Below, one piece after another: positions 12,689 through 33,477 of a stretch of 35,090 nt of DNA. The position numbers and the translations under genes are program-made. The notes under the pieces were generated by a model that saw only the letters and a program-made list of their open reading frames with translations, was not told the origin of the DNA and searched no databases. Where the stretch lies: IMG/VR virus record IMGVR_UViG_2671180963_000003, one strand, 5' to 3'. Every line of letters begins with the position of its first letter. Positions within the stretch are counted from its first letter, which is position 1. This DNA is from a virus. Its lineage: Duplodnaviria; Heunggongvirae; Uroviricota; Caudoviricetes.

Positions 12689-12825
12689 ACTAACGTAGAA
12701 CCTTCTGAACCTTCCCCCGATTTGGGGGAAGAAAATCTGATTCCATCTCAGGAAGAAGAAGTTCAAGAGGTTACGGCGAAAGCCACAGTTAAAAAAGAAC
12801 GTAAGACTAAAGCAAAATAATAATT

Positions 12826-12852
12826 AGCCCTGCCTAACGGTGGGGCTTTTTT
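12826..12852 (+). terminator. rho-independent terminator after the capsid gene
   Basis: 9 bp stem AGCCCTGCC/GGTGGGGCT (two G-U pairs), TAAC loop, TTTTTT. Confidence 0.6.
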
Positions 12853-12882
12853 GTATGTAAATACTCCATAAAGGGGGTAACT

Positions 12883-13173
12883 ATGTTCAAATTATCAGAA
12901 TCACAATTATCAAGAATGTTTAAGAGTGCTCCTGTATTTTCGGTGGAAGGTGGTAAATCAATTCGTGCTTATCATGAAATTACTACTACCGACGAACAAG
13001 GGGTAATTACAGAATCAGAATTTCTATTTTGTCGTGAGGGAGACTTAAATCAGGGTGATGTTGTCATTGTAGACGGTGAACGCTTCAAAGTTCAATACGT
13101 TAAGCGCAATGGTGATAATACTTCTGATTGCTTTATTGCTCGTGCAGGGGGTACACATGCTCGCTACCGTTAA
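12883..13173 (+). CDS. head-tail connector/head completion candidate
   Basis: 96 aa ORF, AAGGGGGTAA Shine-Dalgarno, directly downstream of the capsid gene; assignment by position only. Confidence 0.4.
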   Translation: MFKLSESQLSRMFKSAPVFSVEGGKSIRAYHEITTTDEQGVITESEFLFCREGDLNQGDVVIVDGERFKVQYVKRNGDNTSDCFIARAGGTHARYR

Positions 13174-13579
13174 TAATATGCCTAGACTGAAAATCAAACG
13201 CGCCTTGCAGGATATTATCGAACAAGATTTAGGTCTGGCTTTAAACGTAGAACAAACTCAGCAAGGCTTTAGTGATGACGTGGTTTGTTGGATTACTGGA
13301 ATGAATGAGACTTACACTAGGGTCCGTGGTGGTAATGCAATGCAAGCTGAATGCGTTATCGAAATGCAGTTGTATTCTCAGAATCATGAAACCAAAATTC
13401 ATGAGGGTATTTGCCAGATAATCCAGATTCAGCCGGATAACCCACGTTTTAAAGATTTGGGCTTCTCTATTTCAGATATCACTCCAGTAGCCTCTAATAC
13501 CGATTATGACGATGATTCTAGTGATGGGGGTATCGTTGGGACACTTAGCCTTAAATTTTCTTATGTAGCGCGTTTTTAA
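13157..13579 (+). CDS. neck/tail completion candidate
   Basis: Start moved to the ATG at 13157 (AGGGGG Shine-Dalgarno 6 nt upstream), overlapping the previous gene by 17 nt; 140 aa; assignment by position only. Confidence 0.4.
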   Translation: MLATVNNMPRLKIKRALQDIIEQDLGLALNVEQTQQGFSDDVVCWITGMNETYTRVRGGNAMQAECVIEMQLYSQNHETKIHEGICQIIQIQPDNPRFKDLGFSISDITPVASNTDYDDDSSDGGIVGTLSLKFSYVARF

Positions 13580-13588
13580 GGGGTAATA

Positions 13589-14422
13589 ATGAATATTACA
13601 CAAGATAACTTAGACATTTTCACGGGGTCGCATGTTGAAGTCTCCGTGTCTACTATGGTGGATAACCAGCCGGACTTTTTCGATCCTGCATTTAGTCCTA
13701 TCGAGAACATCGCAGCATTCCCTACGATCACCGAATCCACAGAGATCCAGACGTTAGAAGAATATAACCATGATGTTACTGGTAAGTTGGCTGGCTATCG
13801 TAAACTTGAATCAACAACACTCACAGTAAACCGTGTTCTGGATGATGAACATCAAGCAATGTTGATGAAAGCGGTAGAGGATAAAACCCCTTTACGCTTC
13901 CGTATGTTCTATGTTGTGAACTCTGGCTATAGTGCTGCTAACACAGGATACTACGTCATTTTTGATGCATACGTCACATCACACAAAACCCGTGGTAGCG
14001 ATAACAAAGTTACTACCATCGAATTTAAATTAGATCCTGATGGTGGGATTCTCGACCGTGGTATTGCCACCGAAGGCCGGATCTTACGTCAAGGTGATTT
14101 TGGTTTGGGCGCTGGTGTACATCCATTCACAGGTCCGATTGATAGCGAAGCATTAGCCGGAAACCGTTTCGTAACTTATCAGGGATCGAGCGTATCTAAT
14201 CCATTTAGTGCTGATACTTCACTAATTCACGTTCAACCTAATGAAGATGGTGGATGGCAATTAACTTGCACCGCTTCCGGCGCACCACGTTTACGAGTTC
14301 GCACAGTCCAGAAAGACGGTAATTCTGGATGGGTGAAAGTGTATTCCACAGAAGAAAAACCGACACCAGCCGAGATTGAAGCCGTTTCTATCCATGACCG
14401 GATCGACTTCGGGGAATACTGA
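13589..14422 (+). CDS. structural protein of unknown role sharing a motif with the tail fibre
   Basis: 277 aa, AAGGGGTAA Shine-Dalgarno; C-terminal EEKPTPAEIEAVS parallels GDKPTPAEIGAYS in the tail fibre around residue 368. Confidence 0.45.
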   Translation: MNITQDNLDIFTGSHVEVSVSTMVDNQPDFFDPAFSPIENIAAFPTITESTEIQTLEEYNHDVTGKLAGYRKLESTTLTVNRVLDDEHQAMLMKAVEDKTPLRFRMFYVVNSGYSAANTGYYVIFDAYVTSHKTRGSDNKVTTIEFKLDPDGGILDRGIATEGRILRQGDFGLGAGVHPFTGPIDSEALAGNRFVTYQGSSVSNPFSADTSLIHVQPNEDGGWQLTCTASGAPRLRVRTVQKDGNSGWVKVYSTEEKPTPAEIEAVSIHDRIDFGEY

Positions 14423-14495
14423 TTGCTTCTCTAAATAAAACATGACGCGGGAGGTTAACGCCTCCCTTATTCCTGTTTTATAGTGAGGTGATTCG

Positions 14496-17400
14496 ATGCA
14501 GTCGATCCAATTTAAACGAACAAATGTTTCTGGCAAAAAACCAACGCCGGAACAATTACAGGTCGGTGAGGTAGCAATCAACCTTAAAGACCATGTTATT
14601 TTTACCAAAGACCGAGATCATGAAGTAGTTCAAATCTCTGTTTCTCCTGAAACTCACGCGGCACTAGAATCTAAAGTTGATGCTAACAAACAAGAACTGG
14701 ATAGTACAATTGCAGTAAATGACCGCAATATTCACGCTAAAGTAGATGAAATTAAACAAACTACTGATGCAACCATCGCAGCAAATCACGTAGAAATTAA
14801 CAATAAAGTTGATGTAATTAAACGCGAAACCGACGCGACAATCGATGCCAATAAAAATAAAGCTGCTTCCGACCTTGCTGGTGTTAAAGCTGAATTGTCG
14901 GATACTATCAACGCTAATAAAAATGCGGCTGCTGTAGCAACACAGGAACTGGACACCCGCATCAATAAAAAAGTTGATGATATTAAATCCCGTACCGATG
15001 CAACCATCGCAAGCAATGACAAAGCAATCAATGACAAGGTTGATTTGATTAAGGCCGAGACTGATCGGACTATCGCAGCAAATAAAGCCTATGCGGAAAA
15101 TCAGTTAACTGACACCTACAATAACCTTACTGGTGTGATTGCAGCCAATAAGCAAGAGGCAGCGGATAACGTCGCAGCATTAACCCGTGATGTTGAAGCC
15201 AAAAATTCAGCAATTCATAGCAAAGTTGACAATAACAAGTCTTACACCGATTCCGAACTTGCACGTTTAGAAAGCCGTATTGATGCAGCCGATGGATCTA
15301 GTGACGGTAAGTACATCAAAAAACACGTAAACACTTATACTGATGGTTATTTGCTGTCTAAGACCGCAAACTATTTTGATGATCCAGGTGCTCGTAATCT
15401 TGATTACTTTGGTGCATTCCGTACCAATGATCTAGCTGATCATATTGCAATGATCTTGCATGTTCCGCACCCATCCGGTGTTAATCATGCTCGTGGTTTT
15501 GAGTTCACTTATGGGTCTAATCCACATGCTACGGTAAGAACATACGGCTATGATGAATTGGGTCATTTGGCATATTCTCACCGCATGTATCATGAAGGTG
15601 ATAAACCTACTCCTGCCGAAATTGGCGCATATTCGAAAGCAGAAATTGACCGACTGTTCCAGAAGACGCTTAATTTTGGTATCGAGGGTGGTTGGTTTAA
15701 ACTAGGCACTTTGACAATGCCACAACAACACGGTCGCACCGCTAAGATTCGTTTGGTTGGTGGTAACGGTTATAACGTCGGACAGAATGGACAAGCCAAT
15801 GTTATTGAACTGGTGATCCGTTGCGGCAACAATAGCCCGAAAGGTGTTGTATTCAATGCTTATTATAGCATTTGGTATTACGAACAATATTTTTGCGCAA
15901 TTCCTACCGATGGCGATAATTACGATCTTTACGCTTACTACGGTGCACATACAGGATTTGTTTTAGCAGAATATCAAGTTTCGTCCGGTGGTGTTTCTTT
16001 AAACCTGTTGGATACTCCTGAATATCTGGGTGGTGAAAAACCTGTTGCAGATGAAATTTTTGATGCTCTTAACATTTCATCATTCAATAACTTTAGCAAC
16101 CGTGGAACGTTAAATTTTGGTGGAAACCATCAAGGCCAATATGACATTGAGCATTTGAACGAACAACAAACAAATGCTAAGAAAAAGTTGCGTCGCTTCC
16201 GTAGTTCCGCACCCGCTACTATCTGGCATGAAACTGTAGATGATCAGAATTATCGTCTTGCTACTGGATACGATGATGTAAACCAACAATTATTGCTGTC
16301 GGCTGCATCCGGTTTGCATATTCGTAGAATGACCATTGATGGCGGTTTAGGTGGAAACTCAGCAATTGATTTTCGTCGTGGTCCAAATGAATCATGTCAT
16401 TTAAACTTCTTTGATTATCGCACTGGTACAGATGTTCGTAATGGCTGGTTTGGCTTCGGTGATGGTCAGACCAAAGATTTTATTTGGTGGAACGACAACG
16501 GTCAAAACTCTATAAACCTGATTGAAGACGGTGAATTACATATTACTGGCGGTAGAGGCCAGAAAATTGTAATGAATAGCGAAGTGGCATTATCTGAAAA
16601 TGCTCGTTTGGCTGTCAAAGGTGGTAACTATGGTTTAATCCTTCGTAATGATGGTTCTAGCTTCCATATTCTTACTACCGATTTAAAAGATTCCTTTGGG
16701 ACGTGGAACACTCGTAGACCATTTAGTTATGATTTCGCCGAAGGTGGATTAGATCTAGGTGGCACAGCTACCGCACGCTGTTTACATCTGGGAATTGATG
16801 GTAGCACCCGCATCGAAGATAATATGGTGTTTAGATCAGGGTCTCGTCAGTCAATGGACTATATTGAATTAATCCATTGGGGTAACAGTAATACAGGACG
16901 CAATAACGTTTTGAGTATGCGAGATTCCAAAGGTTTCTTGGCTGAATTTGAACGCGTGGGGGGTACTAACGGCGTTAAAACCAGATTCTTTGGCGAAACA
17001 TTCACTGATGGTACATTATACCTAAATCAGATGAATAATAGCTCTGAACGATTCTCTATTAATAATTGGGGAAATTCAGAAGTTGGTCGCGCGGCAGTAA
17101 TGGAAGTTGGCGATTCCAAAGGTTATCACTTCTATACTGAACGTAGGACAGATGACACCGTTTTATTTGATGTATCTGGTGCTTTGACCGTGCATGGACC
17201 TAACGGAATAACCGTCAAAAACTCAACTGGTGCACGCCATATCTGGTTTAGAGATGATAGCGATACGGAAAAGGCTGTTATCTGGGCTACAGATGAGGGT
17301 ATTTTACATATTCGCAATAACCACGGTGGACAATTTACACATCACTTCCAGGGCGCGATGATTAAACTGGAAGGGCGTGTTCCTTATGCCGCAGATCAAG

Positions 17401-18020
17401 GACTTATCCGTGGTGAGGTTTCTGGTGGTGCATATGTTGCATGGAGAGACCGACCTGCTGGTTTGTTGGTTGACTGTCAACAAAGCGTTGATAGTGCTCA
17501 TGCTATTTGGAAAGCGGTTGATTGGGGGCGTAACTACATCGCTGCTATGGACGTTCATTGTCCCGGTGATAGTAATAATACTGCGGCAGCGGTTCTTCAT
17601 GTTCAGGGTGCTGATTATCAATTCCATGCAAGTGGAGAATTTCATGCCACTGGTAACGGAAACTTTAACGATGTTTATATTCGTTCCGATCGTCGTCTGA
17701 AAATTAATGTTGAAGATTACGAAGAAAATGCGGTGGATAAGGTAAATAAACTCAAAGTTAAAACCTACGATAAAGTTAAATCTCTTAATGACCGAGAAGT
17801 TATAGGTCATGAGATTGGTATTATCGCACAGGATTTACAAGAGGTATTACCGGAAGCTGTTAAAACCGCAAAAATTGGTGGTTTTGATAACCCAGAAGAA
17901 ATTTTAACAATTTCAAACTCCGCAGTGAACGCGCTTTTAATTAAAGCGGTCCAAGAAATGAGCGAAGAAAATAAACTTCTTCGTGAACGTCTTGCTGCAA
18001 TTGAAGCTAAATTAGGGTAA
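14496..18020 (+). CDS. tail fibre with C-terminal intramolecular chaperone (S74-like) domain
   Basis: 1174 aa. N-terminus MQSIQFKRTNVSGKKPTPEQLQVGEVAINLKDHVIFTKD resembles the T4 gp37-type fibre N-terminus from memory; repeated KVDxIKxxTDATIxAN units; WGNSEVGRAAVMEVGDSKGYHFYTERR resembles a T-even fibre domain; C-terminal DRRLKINVEDYEE...IAQDLQEVLPEAV...coiled coil resembles the self-cleaving chaperone of endosialidase/T5 pb1-type fibres. Confidence 0.8.
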   Translation: MQSIQFKRTNVSGKKPTPEQLQVGEVAINLKDHVIFTKDRDHEVVQISVSPETHAALESKVDANKQELDSTIAVNDRNIHAKVDEIKQTTDATIAANHVEINNKVDVIKRETDATIDANKNKAASDLAGVKAELSDTINANKNAAAVATQELDTRINKKVDDIKSRTDATIASNDKAINDKVDLIKAETDRTIAANKAYAENQLTDTYNNLTGVIAANKQEAADNVAALTRDVEAKNSAIHSKVDNNKSYTDSELARLESRIDAADGSSDGKYIKKHVNTYTDGYLLSKTANYFDDPGARNLDYFGAFRTNDLADHIAMILHVPHPSGVNHARGFEFTYGSNPHATVRTYGYDELGHLAYSHRMYHEGDKPTPAEIGAYSKAEIDRLFQKTLNFGIEGGWFKLGTLTMPQQHGRTAKIRLVGGNGYNVGQNGQANVIELVIRCGNNSPKGVVFNAYYSIWYYEQYFCAIPTDGDNYDLYAYYGAHTGFVLAEYQVSSGGVSLNLLDTPEYLGGEKPVADEIFDALNISSFNNFSNRGTLNFGGNHQGQYDIEHLNEQQTNAKKKLRRFRSSAPATIWHETVDDQNYRLATGYDDVNQQLLLSAASGLHIRRMTIDGGLGGNSAIDFRRGPNESCHLNFFDYRTGTDVRNGWFGFGDGQTKDFIWWNDNGQNSINLIEDGELHITGGRGQKIVMNSEVALSENARLAVKGGNYGLILRNDGSSFHILTTDLKDSFGTWNTRRPFSYDFAEGGLDLGGTATARCLHLGIDGSTRIEDNMVFRSGSRQSMDYIELIHWGNSNTGRNNVLSMRDSKGFLAEFERVGGTNGVKTRFFGETFTDGTLYLNQMNNSSERFSINNWGNSEVGRAAVMEVGDSKGYHFYTERRTDDTVLFDVSGALTVHGPNGITVKNSTGARHIWFRDDSDTEKAVIWATDEGILHIRNNHGGQFTHHFQGAMIKLEGRVPYAADQGLIRGEVSGGAYVAWRDRPAGLLVDCQQSVDSAHAIWKAVDWGRNYIAAMDVHCPGDSNNTAAAVLHVQGADYQFHASGEFHATGNGNFNDVYIRSDRRLKINVEDYEENAVDKVNKLKVKTYDKVKSLNDREVIGHEIGIIAQDLQEVLPEAVKTAKIGGFDNPEEILTISNSAVNALLIKAVQEMSEENKLLRERLAAIEAKLG
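14676..15080 (+). repeat. imperfect tandem ~66-69 bp repeats within the fibre gene
   Basis: At least four consecutive units encoding (H/N/K/D)KVD(E/V/D/L)IK(Q/R/S/A)(T/E)TD(A/R)TI(A/D)(A/S)N; a coding repeat, not a separate element. Confidence 0.6.
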
Positions 18021-18058
18021 TTGGAAAGCGGGGAGAAATCTCCGCTAAGGATTCTTAT

Positions 18059-18355
18059 ATGGGATATTGGGTAAGTAGTGAAATTAATACTAAAATCGAT
18101 GCTTTAAAATGGCATGTATTTGATATTCCTAACGGCTATGGTACTGCTCGTGCTGGTGTCGCTGTAATGCGTCATAATGCTGGTGGTGGGTGGTCTGATG
18201 CACATATTAACGTAGATGGTTTGACCGTTGCTCGTCGTCGTGGTGGGACCAATTGGGGATCTACTATAAATTCGTTTGTTCCTGCTGGCTGCACCGTCTC
18301 CTTTGGTTTAGGGGGTGAAGGTGGTGTTGAATATTTTAAATTCATGGAGTTTTAA
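18059..18355 (+). CDS. Gly-rich small protein, paralog 1 of 3 (FDIPNGW family), function unknown
   Basis: 98 aa; AAGGA Shine-Dalgarno; shares FDIPNG(Y/W), a G-rich core and a C-terminal TVSF..G....YFKF with the next two ORFs. Confidence 0.5.
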   Translation: MGYWVSSEINTKIDALKWHVFDIPNGYGTARAGVAVMRHNAGGGWSDAHINVDGLTVARRRGGTNWGSTINSFVPAGCTVSFGLGGEGGVEYFKFMEF

Positions 18356-18357
18356 TT

Positions 18358-18663
18358 ATGGCTGGATGGATAAATCAAAGAATGTCAAACGCTATTAGTA
18401 TTTGGGCTAATGGTGGATATTTTGATATCCCCAACGGCTGGGTTACTGATTCATGCGGAATTGTTTTTGCTCATATGGAAGCCATTAACGGTGCTGGTGA
18501 TCTTGATTCTGAATTGGCTGTAAATGGATTGATTGAATCAGGTCATCATGCTGGTGATGCTGGGAGTTGGGGCGCTAGTTCTTTAGTTGGCGCTGGTGCT
18601 ACCGTTAGCTTTACATTGGGTAAAGGTAGTTTGCATTATTTTAAATTCAGGAGAATGCACTAA
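18358..18663 (+). CDS. Gly-rich small protein, paralog 2 of 3 (FDIPNGW family)
   Basis: 101 aa; GGAG Shine-Dalgarno; starts 3 nt after paralog 1 ends. Confidence 0.5.
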   Translation: MAGWINQRMSNAISIWANGGYFDIPNGWVTDSCGIVFAHMEAINGAGDLDSELAVNGLIESGHHAGDAGSWGASSLVGAGATVSFTLGKGSLHYFKFRRMH

Positions 18664-18965
18664 TGGCATTTTGGGTAGATGGCGCTTTGGGGAATAGGGC
18701 GGGTAAAGCAAATCAAGGATGGTTTGATATTCCTAACGGTTGGACAGCCGACGCTTTCGGGACTATTTCATTCTGTGCTCATTCTTCCGGTGGTGGCGGT
18801 GGTGACTCTGAATTGCTTATTCATGGTTTGTGTGTTTCTGGAAGCCATAAGGGTCATGATTGGGGACAGATTCATTCTTGTATTGCACCGCAAGGGGCGG
18901 TAATTACCGTTAGCACAAATAGGGGGATCGCTCATCTTCGTTATAGACGTTTGAGCAACCGCTAA
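18663..18965 (+). CDS. Gly-rich small protein, paralog 3 of 3 (FDIPNGW family)
   Basis: 100 aa; AGGAGA Shine-Dalgarno; start overlaps the stop of paralog 2 by 1 nt. Confidence 0.5.
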   Translation: MAFWVDGALGNRAGKANQGWFDIPNGWTADAFGTISFCAHSSGGGGGDSELLIHGLCVSGSHKGHDWGQIHSCIAPQGAVITVSTNRGIAHLRYRRLSNR

Positions 18966-19019
18966 ATAAATAGAATTACGGGTATGTGCCCTATTGTTTA
19001 AAATAGAAGGAAAAGAATA

Positions 19020-20263: not shown

Positions 20264-22693
20264 ATGACAAAACATATAGTAACAATAGAAGGGGATAATA
20301 AAGGGCTAAAGAGAAGTACCAATGAAGCCGCCGACCTTCTCGATAGTTTGTCTGAAAAGGCAAGTAATATTGATTTTGGTGGTGGCTTATCTGGTCTGAC
20401 TGGATCTCTTCGTGGGATCGCTGGCTCTGCTGGTTTAGCTGCTGGTGGTATCGGCTTAGTTGCGACCGCAGTGGTTGCAGCCGCTAAAGCTGGCGCGGAA
20501 TACGTTAAACAATATTCAGAAGTATCTAAGGCGACCGGACTCTCGATTGAATCCCTTCAAAGACTGGAAAAGGAATTTTCTGGTACTGGCCTAACAGTTG
20601 AAAAATTCGGTGATATCAACAAAGACACCTTAGATAAGATGGGTGATGCATGGGCTAACGGTGGTGGTATTGCTGATGACTTAGAATCGGTTGGCCTTAA
20701 GTTAGAAAACTATGCTCACTTCATGACTGATCCGCAAGGTGGTATGAAAGCGGCGATCCAAGTGTTCTATGACATGAAGAAAGCCGGAAAATCAATGGCT
20801 GAAATCAAGTTCATGATGGAATCTTTAGCCAGTGATTCAAGCCATATGACCAGCCAGCTTGAGAAATATAATACTGCTCAAGAGGCGATGATCGCTATTC
20901 AGAATCAATCTGTTAACGTCACCGAAGAAAACGCTAAAAAATATGATAAATTTTCTCAAAATATCAATAAGCTGGAAAATAACCTGAAAGGTGTCGGTAT
21001 GACCATTTCTGGTCCGCTGGTTGATAGTTTAAACTGGTTATTTGACTGGTTTAATATTGATTGGGAAAAGAGTTCTCTATTCAGGGCATTAGATCGACTG
21101 AATAAAGAAGGCAAGACCGCAACTGGCGGTATTCTTAACGCCAACCATAAAGACGCTCAAAAAATTATTGACAAGTACAATAAAGAAAAGCGTTGGAATA
21201 ATCTGGCAGATTGGGAAAAGGCCGCGATCCGTGGTGCTGGTGTCGATCCTCGTACTGCTGGCTTTGATGTTGAAGGATTTAAGAAACGTTTTGGTGATTC
21301 TTATAAGAAAAATGGCTCTCTGATTGTTGTCGATAACGGGGAACATCTAACCCGCAAGGCAGATCCTAACCGTGATTTGACTATACCAAATAAACCAGTA
21401 AGACCAGAATCATTGGGTAAGTCTGGTAATGAGAAGAAAGCCGAAGAAGAAGCACGCAAGAAAGCGGAAGAGGCAGCTAAAAAGGCTAAGGAAGCCGCAG
21501 AAAAAGCACAGAAAGCACGCGAGGATGCAATCAAGCGACTGAATGCACTTGATGTTAAATTGCAAGGGCAAGTTGCAGCGTCTATCACTTCTCAAAATAG
21601 CCAGTTGCAAAACAGCTTAAAAGATGTGAACGACGCGTTAGCTCTGGGCTTAATCTCTCAGGAAGACGCAGCCGCGAAACGCCAGGCGCTAATCGATCAG
21701 AATACTGAAAACGTTTATAAAATGATGTTGGGTGCTGATCCGATTGATGCTCTGAATGCTTTAACACAATTGCAACAAATCAGGGACAACGAGCTAGAAA
21801 GCCATAAACGGTTACTTGATGGTAAAGCTATCTCCTACGAAGAATATATGCGTCGTGTGAACGATACCGAGCAAAACTATTCTCAGATTGAAAATTCTTT
21901 ACAGGGAATGGATGGTTATAAAACCAATCAATTAACTAGTAGTTATGATTATCAAGACTCAAATAATCCGTTTGCTAAATTTAATGCAATCGATAAAGAG
22001 AAATCGGATGCTGAACAAGATTATAAGACCGATAAACTCAAGATTGATGGGATCACCGATCCGGCTAAACGGATGGAAGCATTAGAAAAACTCAATGAAA
22101 ACCATCAAAAACGAATGGCTGCAATTGAGAAGAAATATGCTGATGCTCGCCAGTCAATAGCCGATGATATGTACGGCGGTTTTGCTGCTGCAATGACTCT
22201 CTTCGGGCAGGAAAACACTAAAGCAATGCAGATGGCTTTCAATGCTCATAAAGCATTCTCCATTGGACAAGCGACGGTGAACATGTGGACGGCTGCTACC
22301 GATGCATGGAACGATCCGACCAACGTCACCACAGGACAAAAGATCGCTGCTGCTGCATTGGCTGTTTCTCAGAACATGGGGAGCATTGCAAACATCAAGT
22401 CTACTAGCGTTAGCGGTATGGCTCATGATGGTATCGATAACATCCCGCGTGAGGGTACATGGTTGCTTGATAAGGGTGAACGAGTAGTTGATCAGCGTAC
22501 TAACGGTGATTTGAAAGACTTCCTTGCTGCTCAAAAATCAGGTGGTGGTAACTCTCAGCCGATTGAAGTTAATGCGCCTTTGAACATTAACGGCAACGTT
22601 AATAGCTCAGACAAAATGGTCATGGATGCTATCAAACGTCACGCTAAGTTAGTTGCTCAGGCGGTAGAAGACGCACAGCGTCGTAAGATGTAA
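20264..22693 (+). CDS. tape measure protein
   Basis: 809 aa; N-terminal Gly/Ala-rich hydrophobic segment, long K/E/A-rich helical region, position after the chaperone pair; AAAGGGGTAA Shine-Dalgarno. Confidence 0.8.
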   Translation: MTKHIVTIEGDNKGLKRSTNEAADLLDSLSEKASNIDFGGGLSGLTGSLRGIAGSAGLAAGGIGLVATAVVAAAKAGAEYVKQYSEVSKATGLSIESLQRLEKEFSGTGLTVEKFGDINKDTLDKMGDAWANGGGIADDLESVGLKLENYAHFMTDPQGGMKAAIQVFYDMKKAGKSMAEIKFMMESLASDSSHMTSQLEKYNTAQEAMIAIQNQSVNVTEENAKKYDKFSQNINKLENNLKGVGMTISGPLVDSLNWLFDWFNIDWEKSSLFRALDRLNKEGKTATGGILNANHKDAQKIIDKYNKEKRWNNLADWEKAAIRGAGVDPRTAGFDVEGFKKRFGDSYKKNGSLIVVDNGEHLTRKADPNRDLTIPNKPVRPESLGKSGNEKKAEEEARKKAEEAAKKAKEAAEKAQKAREDAIKRLNALDVKLQGQVAASITSQNSQLQNSLKDVNDALALGLISQEDAAAKRQALIDQNTENVYKMMLGADPIDALNALTQLQQIRDNELESHKRLLDGKAISYEEYMRRVNDTEQNYSQIENSLQGMDGYKTNQLTSSYDYQDSNNPFAKFNAIDKEKSDAEQDYKTDKLKIDGITDPAKRMEALEKLNENHQKRMAAIEKKYADARQSIADDMYGGFAAAMTLFGQENTKAMQMAFNAHKAFSIGQATVNMWTAATDAWNDPTNVTTGQKIAAAALAVSQNMGSIANIKSTSVSGMAHDGIDNIPREGTWLLDKGERVVDQRTNGDLKDFLAAQKSGGGNSQPIEVNAPLNINGNVNSSDKMVMDAIKRHAKLVAQAVEDAQRRKM

Positions 22694-22743: not shown

Positions 22744-23304
22744 ATGTTCAAATCCAAGAATATTAAAATCACAGATTTTACTCTTAAATCAAAACAGCCT
22801 TTCTTCAAGGCGCAATCTATTTCTGGTAAGTTCCAGCGTCGCTTTACTGGCATTCATTTTTATGAAGCAGAATATACAGCTAATTTCATGGCTCAGGATA
22901 TTAACGAAGTAAAAGAATTTGTAGCACGTCACCTTTTTGGTCGTCCTTTTAGTGTGCCACTGTCTTACTTTTCAAAATATACAGGCGATGTACGCCAGAT
23001 GGTTACGGCTGTTGCTGGTACTGCTCGCGGTGGGCGTAAGGTAAGACTCTCCAACTTCACCGGAACACTGAAAGCGGGAACTATCATCCAGTTTGAGAAC
23101 CACAAGAAAATCTACACGATCACCGAAGACGTGAAATCAGGTGGTGAAATGAAACTCTTCCCTAACTTGCGTCAGAACGTCCTAGCGGGTGAGGTGATCA
23201 AGTATCAGAACGTTGAGGGTGAATTTCTTCTCAAAACTGAAAACATCGATTGGAAGATCGCCCAGATCGGCAAGATGAAATTCGAATTAGTGGAGAATGT
23301 ATAA
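22744..23304 (+). CDS. distal tail protein candidate (gpM position)
   Basis: 186 aa ORF directly after the tape measure gene; no Shine-Dalgarno because of the hairpin; assignment by position. Confidence 0.45.
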   Translation: MFKSKNIKITDFTLKSKQPFFKAQSISGKFQRRFTGIHFYEAEYTANFMAQDINEVKEFVARHLFGRPFSVPLSYFSKYTGDVRQMVTAVAGTARGGRKVRLSNFTGTLKAGTIIQFENHKKIYTITEDVKSGGEMKLFPNLRQNVLAGEVIKYQNVEGEFLLKTENIDWKIAQIGKMKFELVENV

Positions 23305-23957
23305 TGGCAACTATTCAGGAATCATTCAGCAAACTATGCACTAATCTGGACTTCATCGAGGTATACAACGACCAGACAGGTCAGAACGTGTCTAGATTGA
23401 CGCTACCGCAGCTTTTCTCCACTGGATCGATGTTTCACATTATCGAAGTGATTACCGCGTCAGGGGACGTTCTACGGCTTACAGATGGGTATTTCGATTT
23501 GGACTATAACGGATTTACGTATCTCGCAACGGGTGATTTTCTTCAAATCTCATCGAATACCGAAGAGAAGGAGATCAACAACAACGGGATCAACGTAACC
23601 GTTTCTAACGTTCGCGAGGAATACATTACTCTCATTCGTAACAAGCAATTCGATAAATCTGATGTGAAAATCGAGATGGTTTTCCTTAACCCCAACACGG
23701 GCAAGGTTGAAACCACTTACCCTGTTTTCCGTGGGGTAGTCGATTCCATCGGTATTAACATCGAACATGAAGATGATGAGTGTAAAAACGAATCAGAATT
23801 TCAGCTTAATAGTATCTGGGAAGTTCTAGATAAAAACGCTCGTAGTCATGCCTCAGATGGTATCCACCGATCCTATGCCGGAAACGAGAATGATCTATTC
23901 TTCTCAAGGACCGGGCGCTGGCAATCGGAAAGCAAGTGGCATTCATCGAAGAAATAA
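23304..23957 (+). CDS. minor tail/tip protein candidate (gpL position)
   Basis: ATG at 23304 overlaps the upstream stop (TAATG); GGAGAA Shine-Dalgarno; 217 aa. Confidence 0.5.
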   Translation: MATIQESFSKLCTNLDFIEVYNDQTGQNVSRLTLPQLFSTGSMFHIIEVITASGDVLRLTDGYFDLDYNGFTYLATGDFLQISSNTEEKEINNNGINVTVSNVREEYITLIRNKQFDKSDVKIEMVFLNPNTGKVETTYPVFRGVVDSIGINIEHEDDECKNESEFQLNSIWEVLDKNARSHASDGIHRSYAGNENDLFFSRTGRWQSESKWHSSKK

Positions 23958-24003
23958 TCCCTTCTCCCTAAGCCTAGTAAATAACAGCATGGAGGTATTC
24001 AAC

Positions 24004-24423
24004 ATGCTAAAAACTAGGCTTATCACCGATTACATCAATTCTTTAATAGGTCAGGAGTTCGTTCAAGGCGAGAATGATTGCAATATAATTGCATGTAAGA
24101 TCATCGATATTCTCGCTGGTACTGACCTATATAATTCTCTTTATAAAAAATATTCAACTAAAGAAGAAGGCTTGAAAATCTGCAAAGAATTAAGCGGATA
24201 CACAAATATCCTTCAACCAATTAAGAAACATTTCAAATTAGTCACTGATGATTTACAGGACGGCGACTTACTGGTCACAGCCCACAAATTAGGAAACCGC
24301 AAATATTATTCCGTAGTTCCTCATTATTCCGGTTATGGCCTCGTTGAAGAAGATGGTATCTGGATGACCATTCCTGTTTCAGACATTGACTATGAACAAG
24401 TTTATAGATTCGGGGGTGAATAA
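24004..24423 (+). CDS. tail tip assembly protein candidate (gpK position, possible NlpC/P60-like fold)
   Basis: Start moved to ATG 24004 (GGAGGT 8 nt upstream); the Cys in GENDCNIIAC and the His in PHYSGYG are compatible with a Cys/His peptidase; 139 aa. Confidence 0.4.
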   Translation: MLKTRLITDYINSLIGQEFVQGENDCNIIACKIIDILAGTDLYNSLYKKYSTKEEGLKICKELSGYTNILQPIKKHFKLVTDDLQDGDLLVTAHKLGNRKYYSVVPHYSGYGLVEEDGIWMTIPVSDIDYEQVYRFGGE

Positions 24424-27400
24424 TGGGATTTGAAATATTAGTAGGCGCGGTTATTGCTGGTGCGTCTGCTGGGATGGCTGCTGCTGCAACATTTTCTGTT
24501 ATGACCGCAGTCGCTATCGGGATGGCTGCAGGTGCAATGACCTTGATCGCTTCCACTGTAGGCGCACCAAAAACACCGAAAGTACAAAGCCCAGATAATG
24601 CGGTGACACTAGGAACATCAAACGATCCGAAAACAGTATTACCCGTTCTTTTTGGTACTACCCGCACGGGTGCAATCTGCGTTTACAAGGCAATTTCACA
24701 GCGTGAAAATAACAAGCTGGTACAAATTTTTGCTATTGCCGAAGGTGAGATCGATCACTTTAAAGCACTGCACATCGATAATAAAAACGTTCTCATTAGC
24801 CAGAATATGACAATTCGTGATGGCATTCTCGATAAAGGAAACATTAAAGACGAATACCGCAAAGTTTTAGAAGTCGAGTTTCGCACGGGTAAAAATCCTA
24901 ACACTGCATTGGATTTAGCTAAACATCATTTGGGCGCTGATTGGGATGATCGGTATCAGGGTAACGGCATTGCGACCATGTGTATTGTTTTACGTCGTGA
25001 TGACAAATCTTTGGCTGCTGGTGTTGATATTCTCCAGCCTAATAGCCAGGTAGCGGTCGATGTTATGGGCTTAAAGATTCGTAACCTTGAAACCAATGCT
25101 ATTGAGGCTAGCACTAACGGCGTGGACCAGATTTTCCATTATCTGACAAATACAAAGTATGGTCTTAGTGTACCGATTGAAAATATTAACGTTGATTCAT
25201 TCCTGAAAGTGCGTAAACAAGTACGCCAGATGGATTTACATTCCAACGGTGCATGTGATCCGAACGCCAGCTTTAAAGAGAACTTAACTAGCCTTATGCA
25301 GACTTTCGGCGGGGTGATGTTCGAATCCTTTGGACGTATTACGCTGAAACTGGATGCTCCTGATATTGTTAAGCATACCTTCAATGAAGACAATATCATG
25401 ATGGGAAAAGTATCACTGAAAACAGGTGGCACTAACGGTTATTTCAATACCATTAACGCGATGTATCAAGAACCATCAATCGACTATTCAGAGCAAATGC
25501 TACGTTATCCGGCTGATGCTGAAAACGATGCTACTATTCGTCAAGATGGTCGAATTATCGCTAAAGATATTGAATATCGTTTTGTTAAGTCTAAAGCCCA
25601 GATTGATAAACTTGCGAGTGTAGAACGAAATAAATCTCGTATCACTCAGGTTATCAGCTTTATGACTACTGACGCATTCACCGCCGAAGTATGGGACGTT
25701 ATCAGCGTAACCTATGATGAATTGAAACTGAATAATTCACTTTGGCGCATTACTGCAATTGATCGTTCTATTGATTCTGGTATTGCTGGGATGATGACTA
25801 TCACCGCCACAGAATATAATTCTCAGGTTTATACTGACCTGAACTATGCGGCAACTCCAGACAATAGACCTACTGGTTTACCGGATTCAATGACAGTACA
25901 GAAACCGACTAATTTCAGAATTAAGGCAACTGGTGAGACAATCCACGGTAAAAACGTTACTTTGACATGGGATGCACCGGAAGATTTTAACCGCTACGGT
26001 TTCCAGATTGATTACCGTGTAAGTGGATCGCCTAACTGGATTAAGCTGGGGCAGACTTCACAGCAAATTTTCAATATCAATGCACTGGCAAAAGATCGCT
26101 CCTACGATTACCGCGTTTGTGCTTTCGGTATTATTGCTCGTTCCGAATGGGTGGAACTGGTTAACCAGAATCCTACTGTTACCTATGAATTGCCGACTCC
26201 GGTTATTCGAATCAAAAATCAGGGTAGCACGCCTGGTACTTTCGAAGGCAATGATCTGATTATCGAATGGGAAAATCAGCAACAATTAGATGTGATGATC
26301 AACGGTGAAGCTAACAAGTTTAGTGACCTGTTTGAAGCATACATTATCAAGGTAACTAACAAGGCTGGTAAGTCTATTCAGTACCGTACCCGCGATCCTG
26401 AATCATGGACTTATACGCTTGATATGAACCAGTTTAACGGCCTTTCCCGTGAATTGACGGTAGAAGTATCAGTCAAGGGCTATAACAACTCAGAGAGCGC
26501 CCCAGCGCGTTTAGTGGCTATCAACCCACAACATAAGCCGATGAAAGGTTTTAGTGCGCGTGGTGGCTTTAATACTGCGTTTGTTAGCTGGGCGGATGAC
26601 GTAGAACATGACTATGCAGGGTCAATCATCCAGTATGCAACCGATAATACTTTCTCCGATGCAAGGGCAGTGACTACCAATAGCGTTAGTCATACTTCCT
26701 TTGATTTGGCTGACGGTGATTATTATATCCGTGGTGCTCACTATGATATTTTCGGTATGGATGATGCTGTTTGGTCTGAACCGTATTTCATGCAAATGAA
26801 ATCTACCATTAGCTGGGACGATCAGGACAAAGAAGCACTGGAAGACCTGATTGGTTTACAAGATCGCTTAGATGAAACCATCGCGGATGCTATTGCTCAA
26901 GCTGGCGCTAATGCCGATGCTAAGATTGATGCAATGCATAAACAGATTACTACCGAGACAGGGCAGACGGTCCAAGCCTCAGCCGATACTCTCAAGAGTC
27001 TGATTGCTACCAGTGAGCAAGCCAGCGCAACTAAGATTGATCAGGTTAAAGCTGAACTGAAAGGCGATATCACCAAAGAAGTTAGCGCATCCGCTACTAC
27101 CCTGAAACAAGCAATTGCTACCAGTGAGGCAGCAAGCGCAAGTAAGATTGATCAAGTTCGGGTAGAAATGGATGGCAAGATTGCTGGTGTGAATCAGGAA
27201 GCAGATGTAAAAATCGATGCTTTGAAGGGAACCATTAACAGCAAATATAATCTGGCAGTTAATGCAGATGGTCGCGTGGCTGGTATTCATATGAGCGCAA
27301 CCAATGATCCGGCAGAACCGACAAGAATCATCTTTACGGCTGATAAAATCGCGGTAGCTCCACAAGACGGATCAGAAGTTTGTCCGTTTGGTATCGAAGG

Positions 27401-28199
27401 TAACAAGGTTTATCTCGATAATGCCATGATTCGTAATGGGGCGATCGGAACAGCCCAGATCAACGATGCTAGCATCACCACGGCTAAAATCGGCACAGCC
27501 CAGATTAACGGTGCTCACATCCAGCACGCCCAGATCGGAACAGGTCATATTATTGATGGCTCTATCGATAATGCTAAAATTGGTAACTATATCCAGTCTT
27601 ATAACTGGAATGGTAACGATGGATGGTATATCGGCAAAGATGGCACTTGTCATTTTAGACACGCTAATATTCGTGGTCATTTGGTGGCTGACTCCGGTGA
27701 AATGAACAACGTAACGATTAATTCAAGTTGCCGCATTTTGGGTATGCTTGATGCTAATCAGGTGCGTGGTGACTTCGTGAAAGCTATTGGTCGTCGATTC
27801 CCACATTGGGACGAAAACCCATCATTGGGCTATCCCGGTTATCCGCAAGGTACAATCACTGTTCGAATTGAAGATGATCACCCGTTTGATCGTCAGATTA
27901 TCGTTCCGGCTATTAGCTTTGGTGGTCTTAATGCGCGTGAAGGCTCGAATAACAATACTTACTATGATAACTGTCGCTTGATTGTTCGCAAGAACGGTGC
28001 TGAATTATATAACCGTGCATATGGCAGACAGACTGGATTGTATAGTGCTGTTATTGATATGCCAGCCGGACACGGACCAGTTACGCTAACTTTTGAAGTA
28101 AGTTCAAGCGCAATCAACAACTGGACTCCCAGCACATGGATCAGCGATCTTTCTGTAATTGTTACTAAGAAAGCCGCTACGGGTATTTCTGTTTCTTAA
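24423..28199 (+). CDS. central tail fibre/host specificity protein (I-J-like fusion)
   Basis: 1258 aa; hydrophobic Gly/Ala-rich N-terminus followed by VLPVLFGTTRTG, like the C-terminal part of lambda gpI; fibronectin-III-like segments; C-terminal DDHPFDRQIIV...MPAGHGPVTLTF...VIVTKKAATGISVS resembles the lambda J C-terminal receptor-binding region as recalled from memory. Confidence 0.8.
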   Translation: MGFEILVGAVIAGASAGMAAAATFSVMTAVAIGMAAGAMTLIASTVGAPKTPKVQSPDNAVTLGTSNDPKTVLPVLFGTTRTGAICVYKAISQRENNKLVQIFAIAEGEIDHFKALHIDNKNVLISQNMTIRDGILDKGNIKDEYRKVLEVEFRTGKNPNTALDLAKHHLGADWDDRYQGNGIATMCIVLRRDDKSLAAGVDILQPNSQVAVDVMGLKIRNLETNAIEASTNGVDQIFHYLTNTKYGLSVPIENINVDSFLKVRKQVRQMDLHSNGACDPNASFKENLTSLMQTFGGVMFESFGRITLKLDAPDIVKHTFNEDNIMMGKVSLKTGGTNGYFNTINAMYQEPSIDYSEQMLRYPADAENDATIRQDGRIIAKDIEYRFVKSKAQIDKLASVERNKSRITQVISFMTTDAFTAEVWDVISVTYDELKLNNSLWRITAIDRSIDSGIAGMMTITATEYNSQVYTDLNYAATPDNRPTGLPDSMTVQKPTNFRIKATGETIHGKNVTLTWDAPEDFNRYGFQIDYRVSGSPNWIKLGQTSQQIFNINALAKDRSYDYRVCAFGIIARSEWVELVNQNPTVTYELPTPVIRIKNQGSTPGTFEGNDLIIEWENQQQLDVMINGEANKFSDLFEAYIIKVTNKAGKSIQYRTRDPESWTYTLDMNQFNGLSRELTVEVSVKGYNNSESAPARLVAINPQHKPMKGFSARGGFNTAFVSWADDVEHDYAGSIIQYATDNTFSDARAVTTNSVSHTSFDLADGDYYIRGAHYDIFGMDDAVWSEPYFMQMKSTISWDDQDKEALEDLIGLQDRLDETIADAIAQAGANADAKIDAMHKQITTETGQTVQASADTLKSLIATSEQASATKIDQVKAELKGDITKEVSASATTLKQAIATSEAASASKIDQVRVEMDGKIAGVNQEADVKIDALKGTINSKYNLAVNADGRVAGIHMSATNDPAEPTRIIFTADKIAVAPQDGSEVCPFGIEGNKVYLDNAMIRNGAIGTAQINDASITTAKIGTAQINGAHIQHAQIGTGHIIDGSIDNAKIGNYIQSYNWNGNDGWYIGKDGTCHFRHANIRGHLVADSGEMNNVTINSSCRILGMLDANQVRGDFVKAIGRRFPHWDENPSLGYPGYPQGTITVRIEDDHPFDRQIIVPAISFGGLNAREGSNNNTYYDNCRLIVRKNGAELYNRAYGRQTGLYSAVIDMPAGHGPVTLTFEVSSSAINNWTPSTWISDLSVIVTKKAATGISVS

Positions 28200-28218
28200 A
28201 ATTTAATTCTAATAATTA

Positions 28219-28257
28219 ATCCCGCTTAATTCTTTTGAGTTAAGCGGGATTATTTTT
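28219..28257 (+). terminator. strong rho-independent terminator after the central fibre gene
   Basis: 11 bp stem ATCCCGCTTAA/TTAAGCGGGAT, 10 nt loop, T-rich tail. Confidence 0.7.
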
Positions 28258-28304
28258 ATCTAAATAATTTTGCCATTAAACTATATAAAAATATCGGGGG
28301 CGTA

Positions 28305-31748: not shown

Positions 31749-33428
31749 TTAAATTCCAAATTCCTGTAATGGACCTGGTATTTCCTCTTCTGGTTTCCAG
31801 TTCTTATCTGTCAGCATGTCTAAACATGGATGCAGAACAAGCCCGTTGCTCTCCAGAATCTGCCTATCATTGATAGTTTTCAAATCAATGAATATCCGGC
31901 CTTTCCTCGTTCCTCTTGAATTTTCTATTACAACTCTCTGGGTCTTTCCATCGATGTATTCCAGTACAAACAAGTTTTTGTTTCTGTCAATCCTGCTACA
32001 CCCGATCCGCTTTAGAGCTTGCTTAATCTTAAACCGGACCTTTAGTCGTTCCTCGTTATAAACATCTTCTAAATCAAATTCTGCGAGCTTCTCCCAGCCT
32101 TGAGAGTCCACAGAATACATTTCCTCTTCTGCCATCTTGATCTGATTGTAGAGTGTTTCACGCTCGCTATTGAGGGTAGTAATCTGATCGGCTAGCTCCT
32201 TCGTTGCTCCTGTCATAGCAGAAAGGGCAATCAGGTTATCAATCTTGCGTGATATTTCATCAACCTGTACTTTCAAAGCCGGAACCGGATTAGCCTTGTC
32301 CTCAGCAATCCAGATTTTATCAGCCAGCAATTGCAATACAGCTTTCTCTAATTGATCACCTCGAAAACTCCAGTTTGGATGCTCGCAATCAAGTCTACGT
32401 GAACGGGTCGCATCACATGTATAACGATACTGGTCAGAACGTTTGTTCGTTCCCTTCACTTTAACCATAGCGCAACCGCAATGATCACATTTCAATAGGC
32501 CAATACCACTAAGCAGGGGGATCGGTTTAACTTCTTCCTTCTCTCCAAAGTTCCATGCTCTAGCACCAATATTTTTCTTAAGGTGATAGAACGTAGCATC
32601 ATCAATAACACGAGGGTAATAATCCTTTAACTCATAGTTAACGCCATCTACAGAGACTTCCTTGATACCAATCAAAGCGCGGGTATGGAACAACCTTTCA
32701 ACCATTGCCCGTGACCATTTTGAATGCTTCTTGTTGCTTACTGCTGGTGGCGGTGTATATGTCTCGTTAAGGTGATCCAGTATTTCGGCGGTTGAACGTC
32801 CATTCTTCCGTAATTCCACAATCTCCTGAACAACAGGGAAGTACACCGGATGAGGCAACACATAACCGGAAGTGGTATCAGTCCACCACATATTCTTTCC
32901 AACTTCCTCGATAGCCACTGCCGGATTTTGTGGATTTTCTTGATGAGCTTTAATCTTAATCAATGCGCTTGAGTTAGTACGATTGCGCTTAGTCTGGCTT
33001 TCCTCATTACCACGGATGAATAAAAGGATGGAGAACATCAGGTCCATCGGGTTAGCGGTAACAGTATCCAGCGAGTAGATCTTGTTATCCATGCCAGTAA
33101 CAATGGTTATTCCCCTACGGATGATTGAAAGGAATAACTCCTGCGCACTGACAATATCGGCACGGGATAAGCGGTCCAAGTTTTCAATGAATAGCCAGCT
33201 ACCAACAGGAACGGATCTACCAATTGCATCAAGGAAACGAGATAGCGCCCCTGTTTTAGAGTTAGCACCCTTAAACGCAGATACACCCAGATCCTGATAA
33301 TCATTTACCAGTTCAAGGTCATACTTTGTCGCAACCTCTCTCGCCATCCTGATTTGTCGTTCATAACTCGAACCATCATTCTGACGCATAGACGAGAAGC
33401 GAATATACGAATACAGTTTAGTTTTCAT
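31749..33428 (-). CDS. large serine recombinase (integrase-like)
   Basis: N-terminal YSYIRFSSMRQ...ERQ and DRLSR resemble the serine recombinase catalytic motifs; Cys cluster CDHCGCAM...C..C; C-terminal coiled coil; 559 aa from ATG 33428 (the track began at an upstream TTG). Confidence 0.8.
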   Translation of the reverse strand: MKTKLYSYIRFSSMRQNDGSSYERQIRMAREVATKYDLELVNDYQDLGVSAFKGANSKTGALSRFLDAIGRSVPVGSWLFIENLDRLSRADIVSAQELFLSIIRRGITIVTGMDNKIYSLDTVTANPMDLMFSILLFIRGNEESQTKRNRTNSSALIKIKAHQENPQNPAVAIEEVGKNMWWTDTTSGYVLPHPVYFPVVQEIVELRKNGRSTAEILDHLNETYTPPPAVSNKKHSKWSRAMVERLFHTRALIGIKEVSVDGVNYELKDYYPRVIDDATFYHLKKNIGARAWNFGEKEEVKPIPLLSGIGLLKCDHCGCAMVKVKGTNKRSDQYRYTCDATRSRRLDCEHPNWSFRGDQLEKAVLQLLADKIWIAEDKANPVPALKVQVDEISRKIDNLIALSAMTGATKELADQITTLNSERETLYNQIKMAEEEMYSVDSQGWEKLAEFDLEDVYNEERLKVRFKIKQALKRIGCSRIDRNKNLFVLEYIDGKTQRVVIENSRGTRKGRIFIDLKTINDRQILESNGLVLHPCLDMLTDKNWKPEEEIPGPLQEFGI

Positions 33429-33440
33429 ACCATTTCCAAA

Positions 33441-33477
33441 CAAAAACGCCCCTACCGCGTATTATAACGATAGGGGC
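33441..33477 (-). terminator. rho-independent terminator (minus strand) upstream of the recombinase
   Basis: GCCCCTA(c)CG ... CG(a)TAGGGGC hairpin with a U-run on the minus strand; the loop contains TTATAAT. Confidence 0.5.

Follow-up and report, generated by a model that had tools for sequence, protein, structure and literature searches.

How is a siphophage tail tip organized that begins like lambda gpI and ends like lambda J, and does the lambda-J-like end tell which receptor it recognizes? These questions are raised by one coding sequence (CDS), located at 24423..28199 of the window, i.e., the whole 35,090-nucleotide stretch of DNA from a tailed virus (Caudoviricetes; IMG/VR record IMGVR_UViG_2671180963_000003) that was analyzed here. 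The window is part of an Escherichia coli prophage, a temperate siphovirus residing in ycdX. The CDS encodes the tail-tip protein, comprising hub, central fiber and receptor-binding domain, and is a fusion of the C-terminal part of gpI with a J-type protein (gpI-C::J). More than 100 homologs of 97-99% identity are found in E. coli chromosomes in public data, with 'phage tail tip protein' as their PGAP annotation. In our assessment a single chain very probably carries, in this order, a gpI-C module, a hub of the pb3/gpJ/megatron kind, three fibronectin type III (FN3) domains, a repeat-containing shaft, a beta-helical fiber and an exchangeable binding domain of the lambda-J type, with its hub split between two proteins and with the tip mechanism proposed below. 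Although uncharacterized, the protein is a mosaic of an ordinary kind, made up of known parts and ending in a new binding-domain allele, and nothing here would surprise a phage structural biologist.

The N-terminal gpI-like module

A preliminary description of this DNA, made from the letters and translations alone, held that the N-terminus resembles the C-terminal part of lambda gpI, and it proposed alignments with lambda gpI and gpJ as a check. We ran both alignments, and both are significant. By BLASTP, tip residues 3-106 align with gpI 103-222 at 29% identity (E=4e-5). Because the region matched in this pairwise comparison is partly low-complexity, we built a profile from residues 1-112 (21 sequences, with homologs down to 41% identity) and searched it against 177,635 distinct PDB sequences. 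The lambda gpI chains came first (E=1e-5) and T5 pb3 second (E=0.012). Comparison with the gpI family alignment by hhalign gave a probability of 95.9% (E=5e-9) over columns 25-99. The homologous span, tip residues ~8-98 and gpI 117-214, comprises in gpI the helices H1 and H2, the plug and those beta-strands by which gpI packs against the hub domains of J. In the tip these elements would be represented by two Ala/Gly-rich hydrophobic helices (residues ~3-47), a plug-like APKTPKVQSPDN (residues ~48-60) and the beta-strands VLPVLFGTTRTGAICVYKAIS. It is known that gpI residues 159-175 form the plug and that the gpI beta-strands augment the hub domains of gpJ (PMC11101478, PMC10721106), and that H1 and H2 are hydrophobic, predicted membrane helices (PMC11101478). 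Residues 3-47 are the sole strongly hydrophobic stretch of the tip protein and mirror H1 and H2, while its invariant columns (P52, D58, G64-T65, V72-P74, G78, R81 and G83) are non-hydrophobic and line up with the gpI plug (159-175) and beta-strand region. The strongest matched stretch, VLPV(L/V)(F/Y)G..R.G, lies outside the hydrophobic part. In the AlphaFold2 (AF2) monomer model, residues 1-63 are disordered and residues 70-120 have a predicted local distance difference test score (pLDDT) of 85-89. Judged by these sequence comparisons, the tip N-terminus is the TAPI-C module (helices, plug and beta-strands), and the protein is a natural fusion of gpI-C to a J-type hub and central fiber.

The ubiquitin-like half of gpI was looked for as well. 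Pfam gave no match to the ubiquitin-like gpI N-domain (PF06805) on residues 1-136, even at E<=10; for the module itself this search is uninformative, since PF06805 models the gpI N-domain only. A gpI-family hidden Markov model (HMM) run against all 320 six-frame open reading frames (ORFs) of the window matched the tip N-terminus alone (E=7e-4), which agrees with the earlier remark that the phage has no separate gpI-like gene, and the ubiquitin-like N-half of the HMM matched none of the 320 ORFs.

A gpI-J fusion is not new in itself. TAPI-TAPJ fusions in prophages were noted in 2006 by Iyer, Burroughs and Aravind (PMC1779556), although in those fusions TAPI as such is fused, whereas the window tip has TAPI-C only. 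When the module profile was searched against 1.84 billion representative proteins, at least 128 clusters with the N-terminal module were found (E<=0.001), nearly all of them matched at residues 1 to ~115 and mostly in proteins of 700-2600 aa. A Pfam scan of ten of these 128 clusters detected PF13550, PF09327 or FNIII-A_GpJ in six, so that those scanned are mostly tail-tip proteins. One protein, P0431 (1360 aa), matches the module profile at residues 101-217 and contains FNIII-A_GpJ and Phage-tail_3; it may be a complete gpI, extra N-domain included, fused to J.

Hub, FN3 domains, shaft and straight fiber

The tip body had been described as J-like, which holds for profile and fold but not for direct sequence similarity. 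BLAST and phmmer detected no similarity to lambda J before residue ~870, the BLASTP alignment itself beginning at residue 1073. The NCBIfam model NF049904 (lambda_TipJ), for which the cut-off is 1950 bits, gave a score of 212.9 bits, with the match confined to residues 1069-1258. A family profile of 31 sequences, searched against the PDB, retrieved T5 pb3 (E=2.6e-13, including profile 281-694 against pb3 531-944) as the sole hub found by a sequence profile. FN3 proteins were also matched, as were the T1, 'J-like gp24' and F2 pyocin fibers, whose helical part aligns with the shaft. The AF2 model of residues 1-800, computed from a 32-sequence alignment, has a mean pLDDT of 79 with residues 64-800 folded. 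When this model was used as the Foldseek query, DT57C/T5 pb3 came first (E~1e-34), with lambda gpJ at 3e-24, then the JBD30, T1 and Chi tips, and then FN1-FN3 triplets. On the hub region PF13550 stays below its cut-off (19.7 versus 23 bits), whereas homologs pass it. Pfam fn3 was found at residues 506-575, and the secondary structure of the FN3 region is of the beta-sandwich type. Profile and model together indicate that the body is J-like by profile and predicted fold only and that it is closer to T5 pb3. With a predicted hub fold followed by FN3 domains, the protein belongs to the siphophage baseplate hub/tip class of pb3, gpJ and megatron.

Self-comparison revealed a 37-aa period in the shaft (residues 833-943; window 26919-27251). 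A deletion of ~36 aa in the shaft is found in the Salmonella and Providencia homologs and in some 1221-aa E. coli variants; since it corresponds to one shaft repeat, fiber length varies by whole repeat units. The straight-fiber region was identified by PF09327 at residues 931-1027 (E=3.6e-18) and by a PDB match to 9ze4_N, 'J central straight fiber domain', and its DNA contains a 45-nt tandem repeat at 27443-27543.

The receptor-binding domain

The resemblance of the C-terminus to lambda J proved correct and extends further than first thought, i.e., over ~190 rather than ~140 aa. In the BLASTP alignment, tip residues 1073-1257 and lambda J 952-1131 are 41% identical (E=3e-34), a PDB search matches the domain to gpJ 947-1131, and PF12421 (Ig_GpJ_C) is found at residues 1123-1258 (E=2.1e-35, 122 bits versus a cut-off of 26, model positions 2-135 of 135). 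All three C-terminal motifs quoted in the preliminary description are present as framework motifs, namely DDHPFDRQI(I/V)V, DMPAG.G.V.LTF and V.KK.A.GISV. The best match among solved structures is 'A8 gpJ 713' (9WCA) with 171 bits versus 120 for lambda. A8 is a lambda gpJ chimera with a natural E. coli prophage tip and delivers DNA via OmpC in lamB-deletion cells; its tip is 100% identical to a Stx1-phage allele. The J protein of phage 434, which uses OmpC, is 50% identical to the tip C-terminus over 190 aa. For the binding domains, identity is 53% between the window and A8 as well as between the window and 434, and 43% between the window and lambda; A8 and 434 are 46% identical, lambda and A8 44%, and lambda and 434 39%. 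In the window, A8, 434 and lambda domains alike, the four segments that separate the framework motifs are variable, and those of the window differ from lambda's in both sequence and length. These variable segments presumably are the porin-entering loops, L1-L4 of lambda, loops that PMC11101478 and PMC10999833 name in their text as L1-L4 only. No record in the phage collection is more than 54.5% identical to the window's binding domain, and at the sequence level the window domain is a distinct allele.

Alternative explanations

The C-terminus had been taken to imply a porin-type receptor such as LamB. All characterized members of the PF12421-type family bind a trimeric porin, so a trimeric porin is a plausible and, in our estimate, somewhat probable receptor of the window tip. 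LamB (maltoporin) itself is an unlikely one. A lambda-J ortholog binding LamB by its C-terminus would be in keeping with the common Pfam family, the common framework motifs and the 41-43% identity to lambda, but the lambda_TipJ model reaches 213 bits of the required 1950 with the last 190 aa alone matching, BLAST detects no likeness between the tip body and lambda J, and all four variable segments, presumably the LamB-entering loops, are unlike lambda's. Furthermore, the two nearest characterized domains, A8 and 434 (~53%), bind OmpC, and tip domains unrelated to this type also bind LamB. HK97 uses LamB, and its C-terminus, 25% identical to the window tip, is of another type; the LamB-specific GpJ tips of Drexlerviridae have little or no homology to lambda's. 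Recognition of OmpC, as by these two nearest relatives, is a realistic possibility, though we would not put it at even chances. It agrees with the ~53% identity to A8, the Stx1-phage allele that uses OmpC in a lamB-deletion background, with the 50-53% identity to the 434 J protein, and with the sequences SSS..NNWTP.T.ISDL, common with A8, and GML.A.QVRGDFVKA and VIVTKKAA.GIS, common with 434. However, the two OmpC users being just 46% identical to each other, OmpC use is not tied to a common loop sequence; the window's loops match neither of them, and a few point mutations switch lambda to OmpF. OmpC is thus likelier than LamB, and neither can be called from sequence. A literature search for receptor data on the PhiR/ECOR13 lambdoid phage set gave nothing relevant. 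A lambda-J-type tip does not mean LamB: alleles of this one domain family that are ~40-53% identical to each other use LamB or OmpC. Like A8 and 1A2, the uncharacterized allele could help to retarget lambda-based delivery particles.

Two further explanations concern the protein as a whole. The gpI resemblance might be a composition artifact of an Ala/Gly-rich hydrophobic leader, either signal-like or a membrane anchor, given that residues 1-47 are low-complexity and hydrophobic, that the pairwise E-value is just 4e-5 and that a single-sequence PDB search gave E=0.2. But the best conservation (P52 to G83) falls in the non-hydrophobic stretch, which includes VLPV(L/V)(F/Y)G..R.G and is aligned with the gpI plug and beta-strand region; because of this the match is not an artifact of composition. 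In addition, gpI tops the whole-PDB profile search with T5 pb3 next, hhalign aligns columns 25-99 at the high probability given above, and the gpI order of helices, plug and strands is kept. On these grounds the artifact was rejected, and we regard it as very improbable. A decaying, non-inducible prophage whose fiber no longer functions is also improbable, if less so. The tail module of some genomes does contain an IS1, an IS5 or a gene for a NUMOD3 endonuclease, but here the 1258-codon frame is intact with its ribosome-binding site (RBS), coupling and terminator, and the terminase, portal, capsid, tape-measure and lysis genes of the window are intact, while dozens of full-length copies exist at 97-99% identity and the binding-domain alleles are actively exchanged. 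Several points weigh against the gpI-C::J-type fusion that we prefer, or limit what it explains. Although significant, its similarity to gpI is modest, with 29% identity and a score of 28.9 bits when the whole PDB is searched, and because residues 1-63 are unmodeled, the roles in plugging and membrane insertion are assigned by analogy. Sequence comparison links the DUF6950 protein encoded upstream of the tip gene to neither gpK nor RcGTA g14. Because some genomic copies carry insertion sequences (ISs) or an endonuclease gene in the tail module, not every copy need work. Finally, receptor specificity cannot be read at 43-54% identity with four divergent variable segments.

The split hub and comparison with known tails

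Upstream of the tip gene, the order of genes is a PF09931 hub containing HDI, the small DUF6950 gene and then the large protein with a hydrophobic N-terminus. The hub is thus divided between two genes, as it is in RcGTA and phiJL001, and the hub protein (Table 1) completes it. Its PF09931 match is borderline (26.2 bits versus a cut-off of 26), and PHROG 2048, 'tail protein', is matched at E=7e-28. PGAP treats this gene inconsistently between genomes, either as a 152-aa 'hypothetical' or as 'DUF2163 / baseplate hub domain-containing'. The gene between hub and tip had been placed at the gpK position, which is true of its position; its product is a DUF6950 protein in which BLASTP and phmmer detected no similarity to lambda gpK. 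DUF6950 is its sole domain match and JAB was not seen. No homolog of lambda M, L or K was detected by phmmer among all window ORFs, neither the DUF6950 protein nor the hub protein matched any sequence in the PDB, and the single-sequence AF2 model of the DUF6950 protein (pLDDT 39) is unusable for a fold search. PGAP starts the DUF6950 gene at ~24004, which gives 139 aa, and the ORF-list versions of the hub and DUF6950 genes overlap by 110 nt. The DUF6950 protein has a GENDC motif and a helix-then-strand order reminiscent of papain-like NlpC/P60 peptidases; that it is such a peptidase is speculation.

The known systems share different parts of this arrangement. With lambda gpJ (8IYK, 8XCJ) the window tip has in common the hub fold, the string of FN3 domains, the helical shaft, the PF09327 fiber, the PF12421 domain and the place as last gene of the tail operon, but it adds the gpI-C module at its N-terminus and its binding-domain loops differ. 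Compared with lambda gpI (TAPI), the module is the N-terminus of a J-type protein and not a separate gene, and it lacks PF06805; likewise, the gpK of lambda, with JAB and NlpC/P60, is not matched by the DUF6950 protein encoded upstream here. T5/DT57C pb3 (7ZHJ, 8HQZ) is the best fold match and also has hub domains followed by FN3 and a tube-closing plug. However, pb3 includes HDI and thus does in one chain what the window phage does in two, its plug is an internal insertion, and the T5 fiber and receptor-binding protein (pb4, pb5) are separate. Gene order and split are those of RcGTA g13, g14 and megatron g15 (Bardy et al. 2020), i.e., a PF09931 hub, a small protein and a large protein, and the megatron resembles the window tip in layout, its HDII-HDIV being preceded by a hydrophobic 'iris/penetration' segment at the N-terminus. 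Unlike the window tip, it ends in a fiber-binding domain and has neither the straight fiber nor a lambda-type binding domain. The A8 (9WCA) and 434 J tips have the same framework and are the nearest characterized binding domains, but their variable segments are not conserved in the window and they sit on genuine lambda-like J bodies. Overall, the tail tip draws on three lineages, the split hub being T5/GTA-like, the tip of lambda type and the side fiber of T-even type.

Proposed mechanism

From the structures of lambda, T5 and RcGTA we infer how such a tip may function, including its oligomeric state and the tasks of plug and membrane helices. A trimer of the protein would cap the tail tube, with the N-terminal plug propping up the tape measure protein, whose C-terminus would, by analogy with lambda and T5, rest on it. 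The trimeric tip would then bind a protein of the outer membrane; this is probably a trimeric porin, with OmpC likelier than LamB. The fiber and the helical shaft would pass on the binding signal, whereupon the strings of FN3 domains and the hub domains would swing open. This would free the plug and allow the hydrophobic helices to enter the outer membrane. The tape measure protein would exit the tail first and the DNA next.

Iyer, Burroughs and Aravind (2006; PMC1779556) also predicted that the TAPI ubiquitin-like domain and the JAB peptidase form one unit. That this phage lacks the ubiquitin-like domain and has no detectable gpK/JAB homolog would fit their prediction of a single processing unit, as seen at this single locus. 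A further reading, which we offer tentatively and consider rather doubtful, is that all the virion needs of gpI is the plug/membrane segment, that the ubiquitin-like domain and JAB are a dispensable, co-inherited assembly device, and that the binding allele may use an outer-membrane protein other than LamB, OmpC and OmpF. The assembly-device part is suggested by the occurrence of gpI-C without the ubiquitin-like domain, the lack of a gpK-like JAB in the window and the presence of the module in at least 128 clusters. A natural minimal gpI, i.e., plug and membrane module on J, could help to tell what gpI does in the virion from what it does in assembly.

Prophage context and cassette exchange

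The prophage is integrated in the host gene ycdX, adjoining the gene of a 564-aa large serine recombinase (31749-33443, minus strand; locus L003, 28990-32505). Among 5,426 complete E. coli genomes, 57 have the tail-tip module, always on the chromosome, and 19 of these 57, many from pigs, carry the binding-domain allele of the window. The other module-bearing genomes match until residue ~1121-1129 (window 27783-27806) and then diverge. As the agreement among relatives ends here, the binding domain is an exchanged cassette, and residues ~1121-1129 are, as far as the alignments tell, its recombination breakpoint. The natural breakpoint is close to position 964 of lambda J, the junction at which lambda gpJ chimeras have been engineered. 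Prophage relatives in Klebsiella, Enterobacter, Pantoea and Serratia (37-46% identity) have the same N-terminus and body with unrelated C-termini, and the Salmonella relatives (72-73% identity) have a different tip.

A nucleotide search of the tip gene against 50,697 phage records gave no match, and the closest phage protein, from DCP80, is 38% identical and has no C-terminal domain. In Escherichia phage DCP80 (PQ671644) this tip homolog lies at 11917-15675 inside a siphovirus-like block of tail genes; the record is 141 kb long, is filed under Straboviridae/Gaprivervirus and contains motA and ndd. The DCP80 record may be a chimeric assembly or misfiled. Interrupted tail modules were observed in ETEC1703 (a NUMOD3 homing-endonuclease-like gene), 14EC017 (IS1) and PEC41 (IS5 in the tape-measure region).

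The T-even-like side fiber mentioned in the preliminary description was found again at the nucleotide level. A gene for a 1174-aa fiber and three ORFs of ~100 aa after it (14496-18965, and especially 15359-18981) are 77-92% identical in nucleotides to the gp37 region of T-even phages, with matches to the distal long-tail-fiber genes (gp37) of G37-3, KFS-EC, phiS and JE01. The N-terminal third of the fiber gene is unrelated to gp37. The nucleotide identity suggests that virulent myoviruses and this temperate siphovirus have recently exchanged DNA.

The tip gene and the tail operon

The coordinates of the tip gene, its domains and its neighbors are collected in Table 1. At 24423 the sequence TAATG lets the ATG of the tip gene overlap the stop codon of the upstream gene by one base, which suggests translational coupling between the two. 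Terminator-like sites were found three times against 0.4 expected, and the hairpin behind the tip gene is the end of the tail operon. The TAATG overlap, the RBS and this hairpin make the tip gene the last, translationally coupled gene of the operon.

Table 1. Features of the tail-tip gene and of the neighboring tail genes, in window coordinates
Feature	Coordinates	Strand	Evidence
Tape measure protein	20264..22693	+	PHROG 13674, E=3e-67
Distal tail protein	22744..23304	+	PHROG 1302 'distal tail protein', E=2.6e-16; weak pb9 B-domain match
Hub protein with HDI/attachment domain (phiJL001 gp84 / RcGTA g13 type)	23250..23957	+	PF09931, PHROG 2048
DUF6950 protein ('gpK position')	23848..24423	+	Pfam PF22262, E=8e-12
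Ribosome-binding site GGGGGTGA	24412..24419	+	Read directly from the sequence
Tail-tip CDS, complete, 1258 aa (single frame of 1258 codons)	24423..28199	+	ORF list and translation
gpI-C-terminal-like module, aa 1-98	24423..24716	+	BLASTP, PDB profile and hhalign against gpI
Baseplate-hub domains of HDII-HDIV type, aa ~99-480	24717..25862	+	PDB profile, AF2 and Foldseek
Three fibronectin type III domains, aa ~490-795	25890..26807	+	Pfam fn3, secondary structure, Foldseek
Alpha-helical shaft, aa ~800-930	26820..27212	+	37-aa repeats, aa 833-943
Central straight fiber (Pfam Phage_Tail_Tip), 15-aa beta-helix repeats, aa ~931-1067	27213..27623	+	PF09327
Lambda-J-type junction and receptor-binding domain, exchangeable, aa 1068-1258	27624..28196	+	PF12421 from aa 1123
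Intrinsic-terminator-like hairpin, 16-bp stem and T-run	28217..28262	+	Directly 3' of the tip-gene stop

Elsewhere in the window, the major capsid gene (10685-12688) is unusually long, encoding 667 aa, and a PHROG with the annotation 'major head and protease protein' is matched as well by the N-terminal half of its product, which suggests a fusion with a scaffold or protease domain.

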